A stretch of DNA of 64,000 nt from an uncultured delta proteobacterium (GTDB lineage: Bacteria > Myxococcota_A > Polyangia > Fen-1088), in contig CAVYGB010000010.1 of the NCBI GenBank assembly GCA_963767925.1, forward strand, positions 128,001 to 192,000, given 5' to 3'. The notes beneath the pieces are model-generated. The model was not told where the DNA came from and ran no database searches. It saw only the letters and a list, made by a program, of their open reading frames with translations. Shown piece after piece: positions 14,380 to 23,313 of this stretch (positions are counted from its first letter, which is position 1; every line of letters starts with the position of its first letter). The translations under genes and the position numbers were made by a program.

Positions 14380-14916
14380 TCACAGCCAGCCCAGGCGCTC
14401 GAGGGTGGCGACAACGCGCTCGGCGCTGACCTCGGGGCTCTCCGTCCCGTCGGACCGGATGGTGATGTCCGGGGTCCGGGGCGGCTCGTAAGGATCGTCG
14501 ATCCCGGTGAAATGCTGGATCTCGCCGGCGCGCGCCCGCCGATAGAGGCCCTTCACGTCGCGACCCTCGAGCACTTCGAGCGGCGCCGTGCAATAGACCA
14601 GGGCGAAGCGATCGATCTTTTTTCGAACCTCGTCACGCACTTCCTCGTAAGGAGAGATCGCGGCCGCGCAGACGAAAACGCCATGGCGACTCAACAACTC
14701 GCAGACCCAGCCGATGCGACGGACGTTGGTATCCCGATCTGCCTTGGAGAAGCCAAGGCCCTTGCTGAGGTTCTCTCTCACGAGATCACCGTCGAGCAAC
14801 TCCGTGGGAACGCCGCGACGTCGCAGGATGTCAGAAACGAGCCGAGCGGCCGTCGACTTGCCGGCCCCGCTCAGGCCCGTAAACCAGATGGTGGCGCCCG
14901 CGCGCTTGGCCTCCAT
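14380..14916 (-). CDS. cysC: Adenylyl-sulfate kinase
   Basis: [45 protein letters not shown]. Confidence 0.96.
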
Positions 14917-15097
14917 GTCTGGTAGATTGCCCTGCGAACCCGCAGCAACGCCAGTCCCGGATGGGCCGGGGCGAGGGGGATGGCGCTCGGGCAGAGAGTG
15001 GGGGCGGCGTCAGGCCCGGCGGTCGGAAAGGTCCGCCGGTGCCGCTGAGAGCCGCGGCCAGGCCTCCCGCTGTCGGACAGCTCGTACATCTCCAGAA

Positions 15098-17458
15098 ATG
15101 TCGCCCTGGGCTTTCTCGAAAACCTCCGCCCCAATGATTGGCTGTCTCGCCGCCCTGCTGGGCGCGGCGGGATGTAGCGAGAAGTCTGCCCCGGCCAGCA
15201 CCGGCCCGGCCGTCACCAGCACGGCCACCACCAGCGCCCCGGTTGCGCCCGACGAGCAGCCCGAGGGCCGCCCGAGCGCCCGCAGCCGGCTCAAGGGCGT
15301 GCGGCCGCTCGTCGTCGAGGCCCGCCGGGCCGAGCTCGACGTGGGCGGCATGTTCATCGACTTCGGCACCGCCGATCAGCTCAAGTACACCGCGGGCGGC
15401 TGGGGCAACGGCTGGGGCGAGCGGCGCACCGAGGGCGACGGGGGGACGACCTACGCCGAGGCGCGGGGCCGGACCCTCCCGGTCCGCCTGTTCCTTTACA
15501 AGGAGAGCGGCTTGCCCCGCCAGGTCGCGGTCCGGCTGCGGACGCGCGGCCCACCCCGCCAGGTCTCGCTGCTGATCGACGGCCAGCCGGTGGGCGAGGC
15601 CCGGGTGGGGCCGGCCTGGAGCACGATGAGCGTGGCCCTCGGTGCCGAGTCGATCCGCCTCGGGCCGGTGGAGCTGGCCCTGGTCTTCGATTCGCCTCCC
15701 GGGCGGGGCGGCCTCGACGTCGACTGGATGTGGCTGGGTCGCTCCCCGGACGGGGTCTTCCCCGAGGCCGGTTCCCGGGTGGCGCCGATGACCTTCGGCG
15801 ATGGCACCCGGCGGGCCCTGCTGGCCCCCACCCCGCGAAGTTATGCCTTCTACCTCGAGGTGCCGCCCCGGGCCTCGCTGGTGTTCGACTACGGCGGCGC
15901 CGCCGGCACCCAGTTCCTGGTGCGCGCGCGCATGGACCGGGGGGCAGGCCCCCGCATCGTCTTCCAGGGGAAGGCCCAGCCGGGGCGCTGGCAGGAGGGG
16001 GTGGTCGACCTGGGGCCGCTGGCCGGTCGGGCCATCAAGCTCGAGCTCATCACCCAGGGCTCGATCTCGGCCGGCTGGGGCGATCCCGAGATCATGGTCC
16101 CGCGCGACCCCGCCCCCCGGACCCCGGCGCCGGTCGCCACCCAGCGCAAGCCGGCCCGCAACGTGATCCTGCTGGTCATCGACACCGTGCGGGCCGACGT
16201 GTTCAAGCCCTTCAACAGCAAGAGCGCCGTGCGCACCCCGAACTTCGAGCGGCTGGCCGAGGAGTCGACCGTCTTCACCAGCGCCTACGCCAACGAGAAC
16301 TGGACCAAGCCGTCGGTGGCGACCATCCTCTCCGGGCTCTATCCGACCACCCACGGCACCAAGGAAGACGGCGACGTGCTCAGCTCGGACGCCCCCCTGC
16401 TGTCCGAGCACCTCAAGCGCAAGTCGTTCGCCACCGCCGCCTTCATCGCCAACGGCTACGTCAGCGACAAGTTCGGGTTCAAGCGCGGCTGGGACGCCTA
16501 CACGAACTACATCCGCGAGAACCGCCCCTCCGAGGCCCAGTACGTCTTTTCCGACGCGCTGGCCTGGATCAACAAGCACACCGACGATCGCTTCTTCCTC
16601 TACCTGCAGACCATCGATCCCCACGTCCCCTACGACCCGCCCTCGGAGTACACCCGCATGTACCACCCCGGCGAATACCGGGGGCGCTTCGGCCGTTCTC
16701 TCGATGGCATCGAGCAGCTCGACATCGCCAGCAAGAAGAAGCCCATGGACCAGGCGGACTGGGAGTACATCCGGGCGCTGTACGACGCCGAGGTCACCTA
16801 CCACGACACCCACATGGGCAAGTTCCTCGACCAGATCGACCAGATGGGCCTGCTCGACGAGACCCTGTTCATCGTGACCAACGACCACGGCGAGGAGCTC
16901 CGGGATCACGGCAAGCTGGGTCACGGCCACTCGCTGTACGATGAGCTGGTGCGCGCGCCCATGTTGATCCGCTACCCCTCGCTGTTCCGGGGCGGCCAGC
17001 GCGTCAGCGAGCCGGTCGAGAACGTCGACCTGTTCCCCACCGTGCTGGAGGCCCTGGGCCTCGAGCCGGTGTCCGACGTGGACGGCGTGTCGCTGCTGCC
17101 CATGCTCGAGGGCAAGCCCCCCTCGGTCCCCAGCTACGCCATCAGCGAGTTTCGCGCGGCTTTCCGCAGCGTGCGGCTGGGCCGCTGGAAGATGATCGCC
17201 GGCCAGGACGGCAACCGCCGCCTGTTCGACATGGAGATCGACCCCGCCGAGCAGGTGGACCAGGCGCGGCGGGCGCCCATCGCCAGCCGGATGTGCGAGC
17301 AACATCTGGCCGAGTTTCTGGCCAGCCCGGCCAAGACCCTGCGGTTCCGGGAGGCAAACGTGCCGCAACGCCGCTTCAAGCCAGGCCTGGTGCAGCAGGA
17401 TCCCGAGCTGCGCAAGCAGCTAGAAGCGCTAGGCTACTTCGGGGGCATGAAAGAATGA
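15098..17458 (+). CDS. Lipoprotein with N-terminal beta domains and a non-canonical sulfatase-fold domain
   Basis: Lipobox AAGC; VIDTVRAD, NWTKPSV in place of CxPxR, DPHVPY, NDHGE, GHGHSLY; C-terminal LRKQLEALGY. Start 15098 or 15134. Confidence 0.85.
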   Translation: MSPWAFSKTSAPMIGCLAALLGAAGCSEKSAPASTGPAVTSTATTSAPVAPDEQPEGRPSARSRLKGVRPLVVEARRAELDVGGMFIDFGTADQLKYTAGGWGNGWGERRTEGDGGTTYAEARGRTLPVRLFLYKESGLPRQVAVRLRTRGPPRQVSLLIDGQPVGEARVGPAWSTMSVALGAESIRLGPVELALVFDSPPGRGGLDVDWMWLGRSPDGVFPEAGSRVAPMTFGDGTRRALLAPTPRSYAFYLEVPPRASLVFDYGGAAGTQFLVRARMDRGAGPRIVFQGKAQPGRWQEGVVDLGPLAGRAIKLELITQGSISAGWGDPEIMVPRDPAPRTPAPVATQRKPARNVILLVIDTVRADVFKPFNSKSAVRTPNFERLAEESTVFTSAYANENWTKPSVATILSGLYPTTHGTKEDGDVLSSDAPLLSEHLKRKSFATAAFIANGYVSDKFGFKRGWDAYTNYIRENRPSEAQYVFSDALAWINKHTDDRFFLYLQTIDPHVPYDPPSEYTRMYHPGEYRGRFGRSLDGIEQLDIASKKKPMDQADWEYIRALYDAEVTYHDTHMGKFLDQIDQMGLLDETLFIVTNDHGEELRDHGKLGHGHSLYDELVRAPMLIRYPSLFRGGQRVSEPVENVDLFPTVLEALGLEPVSDVDGVSLLPMLEGKPPSVPSYAISEFRAAFRSVRLGRWKMIAGQDGNRRLFDMEIDPAEQVDQARRAPIASRMCEQHLAEFLASPAKTLRFREANVPQRRFKPGLVQQDPELRKQLEALGYFGGMKE

Positions 17459-21915: not shown

Positions 21916-21919
21916 TCCG

Positions 21920-22741
21920 ATGGACGAGCTCGCGTCCATGTCCCGGCAGGTGGCCGAAGCGCTCCTCTGGCCATTCGACATCCTGCCGCGCCGGCTCGGG
22001 CTCCTCGTCTTTTCCGTCGTGAGCGGCCTGCTGATGTTGCTGGTGGTCGGCAAGGCCACCCCCCAGGCTCGCCTCAAACACGCGCGCGAGCAGATGTCCT
22101 CGGCCATCTACGAGCTGCGGATCTTCCTCGACAACCCGCGGCGGATCTTCGTGGCCCAGGGGCGGCTCGTCCTGTGGAGCCTGAACTACCTGGCTTACCT
22201 GCTGCCCGCCTTCGCCCTGCTCCTGCCGGTGCTGGCCCTGCTGTTCGCCCCCCTGGAGATCCGCTACGGGCTGACGCCGCTGTCCCCGGGGACCGACGCC
22301 CTCGTCCGCGTCGACCTGCGGGCCCCTCTGGCCGCCGCCGAGCAGGCCACCGTGGAGGGGGGCACCGCCGTCCGGCTGGTCGCCCCTCCCGTGCTGGTGG
22401 CCGACGAGCGGGTGCTCTACCTGCGCCTCGGCATCCTCGAAAAGGGGCTGCACCGGGTGCGCATCAGCGCCCCCGGCTGGCAGGTGGAGAAGATCCTGTC
22501 GGCCGAGGGCGGCGGCGACCGGCCGGTCAGCGCCGAGCGGCGGGCCGGGCTGGGCCAGCTCTTCGCCCTCGGCAACGAGCCCCCCCTCCCCTCGGATGGC
22601 CCGGTGGCGGCGGTGGTTGTCACCCACCTGGAGCGCGAGCAGAGCTGGGCCGGGATCGAGATGCCCTGGTGGATCTTCTGGCTGCTGGTGGCGACGGTGG
22701 TGGCGCTGGCCTTCAAGAAACGCTTTGGAGTGACACTGTGA
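21920..22741 (+). CDS. Three-TM membrane protein, DUF106/EMC3/TMCO1-like, with an inserted soluble domain
   Basis: Amphipathic N-helix, TM1, coiled coil, Pro-containing TM2, beta-rich insert, C-terminal [22 protein letters not shown]. Confidence 0.55.
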
Positions 22742-23313
22742 CGACCAGATCGGAGACGATAACCGTCGTGTCGGGGCTGCCCCGCTCGGGCACCTCGATG
22801 ATGATGCGGGCGATGCAGGCCGGCGGCCTGCCCGTGCTGGCCGATGGCCTGCGCGAGGCCGACGAGGACAACCCCCACGGCTACTTCGAGCTCGAGCTGG
22901 TCAAGAAGACGCTGCACGACGGCACCTGGATCGCCGGAGCCCGGGGCAAGGTGGTCAAGGTGATCGCCCGGCTGCTCGTCGATCTGCCGGCCGGCGAGCG
23001 CTACAAGATCGTGTTCATGCGGCGGGACCTCGACGAGGTGCTGCGCTCGCAACGCAAGATGCTCGAGCGGCGGGGCGAGCCGCCCGGCCCCCCCGACGAG
23101 GAGATGCGCAGCTTGCTGCTGGGCCATATCTTCGAGACCGAAGATTGGCTGCGGGCCCGGCCCGAGATGGAGACCCTCTACGTCTCCTACAACCGCATGG
23201 TTGTCGAGCCCCGCCCCCAGGCCGAACGCATCAACCGGTTCTTTGGCGGGACCCTCGACGTCGACGAGATGGTCGCCGCCGTCGACGCCAGCCTCTACCG
23301 CCAGCGCAAGTGA
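22738..23313 (+). CDS. PAPS-dependent sulfotransferase
   Basis: GTGA overlap; 5'-PSB loop [20 protein letters not shown], 3'-PB motif [12 protein letters not shown]. No signal peptide. Confidence 0.9.

Follow-up and report, generated by a model that had tools for sequence, protein, structure and literature searches.

Only a few bacteria are known to have sulfated envelope molecules, and it is an unanswered question in what way such esters could be made or edited outside the cytoplasm, where 3'-phosphoadenosine 5'-phosphosulfate (PAPS) is lacking. Dedicated sulfation modules are represented by the rhizobial nodPQ-nodH genes, the raxPQ-raxST genes of Xanthomonas and the mycobacterial Stf enzymes that are linked to cysC. 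Within the alkaline phosphatase (AP) superfamily, enzymes of the LtaS/EptA/OpgB type present their lipid donor by means of an N-terminal domain with several transmembrane (TM) segments. In the Dlt pathway, an MBOAT acyltransferase has as its partner DltX, a small peptide embedded in the membrane whose C-terminus bears a tyrosine motif. In Halobacterium salinarum, Agl30 (VNG1056C) and Agl31 (VNG1057C) are genetically required for sulfation of the N-glycan, and both are described as sulfatase-like members of the AP superfamily, one membrane-associated and one cytosolic (PMC11980604). DUF106 proteins, in turn, are described in another study as archaeal and eukaryotic (PMC5868721). Here we describe a locus within a stretch of 64,000 nucleotides (the window) from contig CAVYGB010000010.1 of an uncultured delta proteobacterium (assembly GCA_963767925.1), in which cysC, encoding a kinase of adenosine 5'-phosphosulfate (APS), is divergent from six plus-strand genes, g1 to g6, that span 15098-23313. 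Four of these, g2 and g3 (encoding the AP-superfamily enzymes AP-A and AP-B), g4 (a small protein with an LGY tail) and g5 (a membrane protein), constitute the core of the system, with the sulfatase-fold protein g1, the sulfotransferase g6 and cysC as accessories, and we conclude with high confidence that a widespread four-gene inner-membrane cassette has been elaborated, in this lineage, into the operon seen here. All components come from known superfamilies, and their assembly is unlike any described system; neither a description of the cassette nor bacterial DUF106 proteins in such a context were found in the open full-text literature, supplements apart.

The four-gene core recurs far beyond the genome of origin. 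Among 41 related genomes a g5 homologue is present in six, all of which keep the order g2-g3-g4-g5, often with g1 in front and with g6 beside g5 or a few kilobases off, and cysC adjoins the cluster in the same genus only. A wider scan, taking one genome per species and using only the tail pattern of g4, yielded 567 pattern matches and 288 confirmed relatives, of which the best 80 loci were kept. The AP family is found in 78 of these 80 loci with two copies each (153 open reading frames, ORFs) and g5 in 76, and the genes g2-g3-g4-g5 recur in one order across the set, far more often than chance would allow. According to the record labels the loci stem from about nine phyla (Myxococcota, Planctomycetota/Phycisphaerae, Acidobacteriota/Aminicenantes, Nitrospirota, Kiritimatiellota, KSB1, Desulfobulbia, Spirochaetales and Cytophagia). 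Of 1.84 billion metagenome clusters at 50% identity, 3751 have a representative that matches the g5 family at E ≤ 0.001, and 2773 do so at E ≤ 1e-10. All-against-all clustering of 4847 ORFs, combined with Pfam scans, revealed no conserved glycosyltransferase, lipid-enzyme or transporter genes around the core, the only recurrent neighbours being the sulfatase-fold gene, the sulfotransferase and a third AP paralogue.

AP-A (g2, 17455-19602, +, 715 aa, P0002) and AP-B (g3, 19599-21578, +, 659 aa, P0003) are paralogues that are 37% identical, and both match the Pfam family Phosphodiest well above its cut-off of 23 bits (7.4e-35 and 121.6 bits for AP-A, 7.2e-27 and 95.3 bits for AP-B). The residues D88, S127, D147, D447, H451, D509, H510, D660 and H661 (AP-A numbering) are 95-100% conserved in alignments of 62 AP-A and 40 AP-B sequences, so that both families appear catalytically intact, with the whole bimetal ligand set of the nucleotide pyrophosphatase/phosphodiesterase (NPP) type and a Ser at the nucleophile position. 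The AlphaFold2 (AF2) model of AP-A, with a predicted local distance difference test (pLDDT) score of 90.4, retrieves a Xanthomonas NPP first in a Foldseek search (7.8e-12), with ENPP1, phosphonoacetate hydrolase and PafA/SPAP also among the closest structures; a phmmer search of AP-A against the PDB sequences returned nothing at E ≤ 0.01. Profile, ligands and hydroxyl nucleophile thus place both enzymes in the NPP type, and for AP-A the Foldseek result of the model agrees. The protein further carries a β-rich insert of about 220 residues (about 150-375) and retains 45-66% identity across phyla. A role of AP-A as a phosphatase of 3'-phosphoadenosine 5'-phosphate was considered and set aside: the genome has two genes of the Inositol_P/CysQ type, and such a role leaves AP-B unexplained.

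From their N-termini, the two enzymes are predicted to face different sides of the inner membrane. In AP-A a segment that resembles a signal peptide comes first, followed by an invariant A-Y-[IV]-G-P-G-A-G motif, an uncharged TM helix and a stretch rich in Arg and Lys, and the motif, the helix and the basic stretch are found together in all 53 aligned sequences, with a median of seven K/R and no D/E in the 22 residues that follow the helix. Small residues occupy positions -3 and -1 before the Tyr of the motif in 44 of the 53, as at a signal-peptidase site. Under the positive-inside rule, the basic stretch predicts a cytoplasmic catalytic domain for AP-A, irrespective of any cleavage of the first segment. 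The homologues of AP-B bear lipobox-like, Tat-like or Sec-like N-termini, and AP-B itself is of the lipoprotein type.

The third component of the core, g4 (21607-21915, +, 102 aa, P0004), has neither a signal sequence nor a hydrophobic membrane segment, and consists of a duplicated ribbon-helix-helix-like module, an acidic linker and the C-terminal tail RLRGLGYID. In most phyla the protein has only 61-65 residues and is built from a KIKI-type strand, two helices around an invariant G-Y-S-S...E...H patch, the acidic linker and the tail; the duplication of the module to 102 residues is seen in Myxococcota. The best Pfam match, DUF7120, reaches 22.8 bits, under the cut-off of 27, and the ribbon-helix-helix likeness is one of sequence pattern only. 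Six g4 sequences from related genomes share an invariant RL[RK]GLGYI near the C-terminus, and when cassettes were collected independently with a g5 profile, the small ORF upstream of g5 ended in [KR]L[KR]GLGYI[SE] in 14 of 15. The same tag is not restricted to g4: an LGY[IFVLM] end is found in 17 of 39 sulfatase-fold neighbours (family members within the loci), where it is preceded by L-x-x, in one compact AP paralogue and in a protein of 159-179 aa, none of which was part of the search pattern, so that tagged partners stand on either side of the membrane. The last of these proteins, which has no assigned family and ends in ERLRSLGYVE, is encoded divergently just upstream of AP-A at L084:5040-5579 (-) and L089:5016-5495 (-).

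Structure prediction suggests where the tail of g4 binds. The complex of AP-A (residues 76-715) with g4 was modelled in three runs beside three controls, all with our own alignments, and gave ipSAE values of 0.78, 0.77 and 0.80, as compared with 0.00 for each of the controls. At least 94% of the contacts are common to the runs, and the pLDDT of the partner is at least 78. Of 157 solved complexes, 116 attain the ipSAE mark that was applied, as do 2 of 215 mismatched pairs, a calibration that is rough when own alignments are used. In the model, residues 61-65, 68, 72 and 91-102 of g4, which are its conserved parts, contact the rim and the floor of the catalytic cleft of AP-A, including H451 and D660, and the tail would thus be seated in the active-site cleft.

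The membrane protein g5 (21920-22741, +, 273 aa, P0005) has three TM segments and belongs to no Pfam or NCBIfam family by its own sequence; in particular, PF01956 (EMC3_TMCO1) does not match it at E ≤ 1. The AF2 model (pLDDT 94.9) consists of TM1, a long cytoplasmic helical hairpin that forms a coiled coil, TM2, a periplasmic Ig-like β-sandwich and TM3, with helices at 24-46, 49-68/73-117 and 250-264. Foldseek matched only the Ig-like sandwich of this model to the PDB and not its membrane core, while VIA-align, run against 48,161 chains, placed 7tut_8 first (Z 10.9, rmsd 4.5, 133 residues; next row 7.9). This chain has 177 residues, is part of the multipass translocon and is probably TMCO1. 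A profile of 61 g5 homologues matches PDB entry 5c8j, 'Protein MJ0480', at 2.7e-5 over positions 4-119, and PF01956 is the Pfam family matched by most of the homologues (9 of 61, best 7.4e-5). MJ0480/Ylp1 is an archaeal DUF106 member of the Oxa1 superfamily. The three-TM core, the coiled coil between TM1 and TM2 and the homology to MJ0480 are all features of the DUF106/Ylp1 branch of that superfamily, and g5 is, on the evidence of profile and model, a bacterial relative of the DUF106/Ylp1 type with an added periplasmic domain.

Together these results redraw the picture given in a preliminary description of the locus, which had envisaged exported hydrolase-fold enzymes and tyrosine-bearing carriers on a path across the envelope. 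A distribution of the proteins over both sides of the inner membrane is borne out as a prediction from sequence rules, and the LGY tail, which is modelled in the cleft of AP-A, appears to be a conserved functional element. Export holds for g1 and AP-B, which bear the corresponding signals, and does not hold for AP-A, the catalytic domain of which is predicted to be cytoplasmic. Neither of the carriers was retained: g4, soluble and ribbon-helix-helix-like in sequence, does not resemble DltX, and the three-TM protein is a relative of DUF106 and the Oxa1 superfamily instead.

Among the accessory genes, g1 (15098-17458, +, 786 aa, P0001) encodes a lipoprotein with the lipobox LGAAGC, an N-terminal domain without family (about 60-345) and a sulfatase-fold domain (354-720) that matches Pfam Sulfatase at 4.8e-43. 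Where sulfatases of the formylglycine (S1) type carry C/S-x-P-x-R, this protein has W-T-K-P-S-V, so that a Thr replaces the Cys or Ser at the nucleophile position, and W-T-x-P-S is found in 32 of 36 aligned homologues that are linked to a cassette. Among proteins of solved structure, S1 sulfatases and phosphonate monoester hydrolases are closest to it in sequence, and the NCBIfam models of LtaS and YejM match it weakly and far under their cut-offs. The C-terminus of g1 ends in LEALGYFGGMKE and thus carries an LEALGYF tag. The homologues likewise carry lipoboxes, and in 21 of the 53 loci whose upstream sequence is long enough, the gene immediately before AP-A belongs to the g1 family. Atlas look-ups of the N-terminal domain of g1 and of g6 gave confirmation of family and weak leads to carbohydrate-binding modules (0.80-0.88) that were not relied on.

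The link between the cassette and sulfation is comparative, and judged from these comparisons it appears strong. The last gene of the operon, g6 (22738-23313, +, 191 aa, P0006), encodes a small cytoplasmic protein that matches Sulfotransfer_3 at 8.2e-8 (33.2 bits, cut-off 27) and Sulfotransfer_1 with 31.1 bits (cut-off 22). The sequence GLPRSGTS as well as R95, R96 and S104 are invariant in 20 sequences and presumably represent the motifs that bind the 5'-phosphosulfate and the 3'-phosphate. By profiles and motifs g6 belongs to the PAPS-dependent sulfotransferases, and its only PDB matches in a phmmer search are weak ones to SULT2B1 (0.009). Of the 41 relatives, exactly the six with g5 have a g6 orthologue at E ≤ 1e-50, and the other 35 have none, one of them showing a weak match (2.6e-4). 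In an even sample of 201 genomes of the phylum, g5 is present in 19 and a g6-type sulfotransferase (E ≤ 1e-10) in 40; the latter occurs in 17 of the 19 g5-positive and in 23 of the 182 g5-negative genomes, and in 16 of the 17 genomes that have both, the two genes are neighbours. Within the 80 loci of the wide scan, such a sulfotransferase lies within 10 kb in 19. We also examined 36 cassette genomes from other phyla in which it is missing from the locus, all of them metagenome-assembled genomes (MAGs) of unknown completeness, and it is encoded elsewhere in 22 of these. The five tested loci that have a third compact, signal-less paralogue of the Phosphodiest family all lack the sulfotransferase, as compared with 9 of the 31 others, and because of this pattern the canonical sulfotransferase and the extra AP-fold enzyme may be alternatives to each other.

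A source of PAPS is tied to the cassette as well. The product of cysC (14380-14916, -, 178 aa, P0007) matches APS_kinase (PF01583) at 1.5e-56 (191.1 bits, cut-off 21.1) and NCBIfam NF002059 with 258.1 bits (cut-off 244), has the P-loop GLSGAGKST and is the sole full-length APS kinase match in the assembly; enzymes of the CysC family make PAPS. A second APS-kinase match concerns a partial C-terminal domain on CysN, encoded beside CysD on contig 10 of the same genome (L092:2814-4649, -), which covers only positions 2-81 of the 152 of the profile and may be a degenerate kinase domain. The CysH-like protein of the genome bears CC...CxxC cysteines, the mark of APS reductases. As CysH thus looks APS-type, cysC is not needed for assimilation here, and PAPS is probably made in this genome for sulfation only. 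In the wide scan, cysC lies within 10 kb of the cassette in 4 of 80 loci, among them L032, where cysD, cysN and cysC stand beside AP-A, and in a Kofleriaceae MAG a single ORF of 394 aa about 4 kb from the cassette (L026:14646-15830, -) encodes a sulfotransferase fused at its C-terminal end to an APS kinase. The association of a PAPS source and a sulfotransferase with the other genes, as drawn in the preliminary description, is upheld by this fusion and by the cysC neighbours, and co-occurrence of the genes in other genomes was recovered in the neighbourhoods of the relatives, in the 80 loci and in the phylum sample.

The contexts of cassette-less g6-type sulfotransferases are heterogeneous and gave no clue to the acceptor. 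In some cassette-less genomes the sulfotransferase is fused to DUF7700 and a class I/II aminotransferase, or adjoins such an aminotransferase, and a class I/II aminotransferase gene also follows directly after g5 in six Aminicenantes-like loci; loci with an aminotransferase link are L098:7235-9361, L101:7039-11034, L095:9108-12607, L073:11044-12159 and L068:11059-12174. These neighbours may hint at an amino-lipid or an amino-sugar as the acceptor.

The interpretation that we favour, tentatively and at somewhat less than an even chance, is that the cassette works at both faces of the inner membrane on an anionic ester group, which it processes or passes on, that this group is most likely sulfate from PAPS, and that it ends on a lipid or glycan of the envelope. 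CysC would make PAPS, probably for sulfation alone, and g6 would spend it in the cytoplasm on an acceptor. AP-A, as a bimetallo-enzyme with a Ser nucleophile, would be held at the cytoplasmic face by an N-terminal hairpin or a cleaved signal anchor, and g4 would hold it, with both the GYSS patch and the LGY tail of g4 placed by the model in the active-site cleft. The most likely role of g5 would be to insert the unusual anchor of AP-A, to stay bound to it, or both, and a putative hydrophilic groove and the Ig-like domain would then bridge the cytoplasmic half of the machinery to AP-B. AP-B and the tagged g1 are predicted to be located at the periplasmic face and may act there. The AP enzymes may move sulfate themselves, as proteins like Agl30 and Agl31 appear to do, or they may handle a phosphodiester carrier of the sulfated group.

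Several observations weigh against this interpretation. NPP-type enzymes with Ser or Thr nucleophiles normally act on phosphate and not on sulfate esters. The sulfotransferase family occurs without the cassette in the 23 of 182 g5-negative genomes, and all eight of the sulfotransferase loci examined in g5-negative genomes have no cassette nearby; conversely, 14 of the 36 cassette genomes have no g6-type sulfotransferase, and genes for sulfate activation are adjacent in only 4 of the 80 loci. The counts of co-occurrence overstate the association, since related genomes are not independent. The presence of the tail in loci L012-L091 follows from the construction of the search pattern, the topology was read entirely from sequence rules, and the match of g5 to 7tut_8 concerns a helical protein, a class for which middling Z-scores are common. 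Finally, AP-B is not enriched in identities at those positions by which AP-A binds g4 (17 of 49 identical, as compared with 225 of 609 overall), and a reading of the periplasmic tag by AP-B therefore gains no support from that test.

A first alternative would keep the architecture and change the chemistry. AP-A and AP-B could be phosphodiesterases, pyrophosphatases or phospho-transferases whose substrate at either face would be an envelope intermediate or carrier linked through phosphate, and the sulfotransferase would only decorate that product in some lineages; we regard this as possible, if rather unlikely. The NPP/PhnA/PafA-type fold with its full bimetal site and Ser nucleophile is what such enzymes would require, Phosphodiest includes transferases of phospho-groups, and the Thr-type enzymes LtaS, EptA and OpgB, with which g1 can be compared, likewise transfer phospho-groups and not sulfate. 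That the sulfotransferase is missing from some cassette genomes and is found without the cassette in others also speaks for it. Against it stand the sulfotransferase that adjoins g5 in 16 of 17 genomes of the phylum sample, cysC or cysDNC next to several loci, the fusion of sulfotransferase and APS kinase near one cassette, and the complementary pattern of sulfotransferase and third AP paralogue, and neither lipid-carrier nor glycosyltransferase genes are conserved beside the core.

The position of g4 in the model also fits a protein that is chiefly a regulator or inhibitor, an antitoxin-like ribbon-helix-helix repressor that would plug AP-A, and which would be compatible with either chemistry. 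Such a protein would silence a cytoplasmic nucleotide pyrophosphatase that would otherwise be harmful and would couple the state of the enzyme to transcription. The KIKI strand and the two helices conform to the pattern, K3 and K5 are at least 90% conserved and lie outside the modelled interface, a ribbon-helix-helix domain with a C-terminal tail that binds the partner is the architecture of many type II antitoxins, and the tail is modelled in the catalytic cleft. By contrast, the match to DUF7120 stays under the cut-off, as mentioned above, and the tag on periplasmic enzymes cannot serve transcription; moreover, the conservation of AP-A at 45-66% identity across phyla and the fixed synteny with AP-B and g5 suggest a housekeeping complex and not a toxin-antitoxin pair, so that we consider a chiefly regulatory g4 unlikely.

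Closest to the preliminary description is a relay of tyrosine carriers, in which g6 would sulfate the Tyr of the g4 tail from PAPS, the Ser of AP-A would take over the aryl sulfate and hand it on at the membrane, and AP-B and the tagged g1 would complete the transfer to an acceptor in the periplasm. The Tyr of the tag is indeed invariant in the g4 alignments, the tail recurs in 14 of 15 independently collected cassettes and is modelled in contact with H451 and D660, the tag is also borne by periplasmic sulfatase-fold partners, and the short segment of AP-A that faces the periplasm contains an invariant Tyr of its own; aryl sulfates are competent sulfuryl donors for aryl-sulfate sulfotransferases. 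Nevertheless, the tail is kept in cassettes whose genomes show no g6-type sulfotransferase, and g4, having neither a membrane segment nor an export signal, cannot cross the membrane as a carrier; no route by which a sulfuryl group could pass the membrane is evident, an inhibitor or a docking peptide would be just as good an explanation for an acidic C-terminal end that reaches into a bimetal site, and the surface of AP-B that corresponds to the g4-binding site is not conserved. The relay is for these reasons quite doubtful, and we give the same low credence to its bolder form, in which the cassette would be a new route for activated sulfate across the inner membrane, the tyrosine relay being joined to a groove of g5 that passes the charged group or its membrane acceptor, and AP-B together with the LGY-tagged sulfatase-fold transferases delivering it to a glycan or lipid of the envelope. 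In this form, lineages without the sulfotransferase would use the extra AP-fold enzyme to load the tail tyrosine, NPP-fold enzymes would be sulfuryl transferases, and a bacterial DUF106 protein would have a role other than that of an insertase.

A catabolic or scavenging cluster, in which exported enzymes would free sulfate or phosphate from external esters, draws on the hydrolase folds and export signals of g1 and AP-B and on the genes for a Cys-type sulfatase and a GDPD phosphodiesterase just upstream, but is very improbable, as the preliminary description had already argued, given the cytoplasmic, biosynthetic character of AP-A, g4, g6 and CysC, the lack of the C-x-P-x-R formylglycine motif in g1, and the finding that no uptake transporter or regulator is conserved with the core. 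The sulfatase upstream, moreover, is without a signal peptide, and its gene is part of another co-directional run.

Whichever chemistry applies, the cassette unites catalytically intact paralogues predicted on two faces of the membrane, a bacterial member of an insertase family, a tag on both sides and a recurrent tie to PAPS. Were the chemistry that of phosphodiesters, it would still be a new conserved envelope machine and would provide a first function for bacterial DUF106 proteins.

The window has a G+C content of about 70%, and plain ORF lists are full of shadow frames. Coding frames were chosen with a frame plot of third-position GC and an ORF filter based on GC3, which gave exactly one coding frame per segment across 14380-23313. 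The junctions were re-read from the coordinates and agree with those described before: g1 and g2 share an ATGA overlap (17455-17458), as do g2 and g3 (19599-19602), g5 and g6 share a GTGA overlap (22738-22741), while g3 is separated from g4 by 28 nt (21579-21606) and g4 from g5 by 4 nt (21916-21919). The earlier domain calls also proved correct by Pfam and NCBIfam. Visual inspection and regular expressions, in place of a trained predictor, were used to assign gene starts, lipoboxes and signal peptides, and the source assembly is a MAG that is 83.8% complete with 5.0% contamination. A divergent intergenic region of 181 nt (14917-15097) lies between cysC and g1; a promoter scan that included it found no sigma-70-like sites, and terminator-like sites are at chance level (4 found, 3.1 expected).

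Just upstream of cysC, a run of co-directional genes with overlapping starts (10007-14350, +) encodes the Cys-type sulfatase with a C-L-P-S-R motif and no signal peptide (10007-11500), the GDPD phosphodiesterase (11497-12540), a 248-aa protein without family (12537-13283) and CobT (13265-14350). In L021 and L026 the cassette again has beside it a sulfatase homologous to this one, with 61% identity, and in a same-genus genome the place of CobT beside cysC is taken by a CotH kinase-like gene fragment (L008:18460-18984, -). Right after g6, two minus-strand genes with a clear coding signal and no Pfam family are found at 23365-24084 and 24249-25220, the product of the former having a 51% identical homologue at the same place in a genome of the same genus. 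They are followed by an efflux-type operon (25593-32833, +) with an ABC ATPase, three tandem HlyD-like adaptors, a MacB-type permease and an outer-membrane factor. In the same-genus genome, too, the gene for the ABC ATPase adjoins the cluster.

In comparison with the known systems, AP-A and AP-B are closest to the NPP/PhnA/PafA clade, exemplified by the Xanthomonas NPP (2gsn/7n1s), ENPP1 and phosphonoacetate hydrolase, with which they have in common the six metal ligands and a hydroxyl nucleophile. The nucleophile is, however, a Thr in NPP and a Ser in AP-A and AP-B, and the pair is set apart from the clade by the β-rich insert, the arrangement on two faces and the small partner that is modelled in the cleft of AP-A. 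For g1, the comparison is with LtaS, EptA/MCR-1 and OpgB, which have the same sulfatase fold and the same Thr at the nucleophile position, and g1 is likewise predicted to be located outside the cytoplasm; instead of an N-terminal domain with several TM segments it has a lipid anchor, an extra N-terminal domain and the LGY tag. The MJ0480/TMCO1/EMC3 branch shares with g5 the three TM segments and the cytoplasmic coiled coil between TM1 and TM2, whereas g5 is bacterial, has an Ig-like insert between TM2 and TM3, and is encoded in an operon of enzymes and not as a general insertase. What DltX and g4 would have in common is the notion of a small protein with a C-terminal tyrosine region that serves a membrane group-transfer enzyme, but g4 is soluble and ribbon-helix-helix-like and is modelled on a cytoplasmic AP-fold enzyme, and no MBOAT gene is present among the annotated neighbours in the window. 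The nodPQ-nodH, raxPQ-raxST and Stf modules place, as the present locus does, a private PAPS supply beside a PAPS-type sulfotransferase; they are not known to have an AP-superfamily pair, a DUF106 protein or tagged partners, and the sulfotransferase is an accessory here. Agl30 and Agl31 differ in being archaeal, in belonging to an N-glycosylation cluster and in being of the sulfatase and not of the NPP type, and the text on them mentions neither PAPS nor a DUF106 partner, a tailed protein or a canonical sulfotransferase (PMC11980604). They nonetheless set the precedent of AP-fold proteins that serve sulfation and not desulfation.

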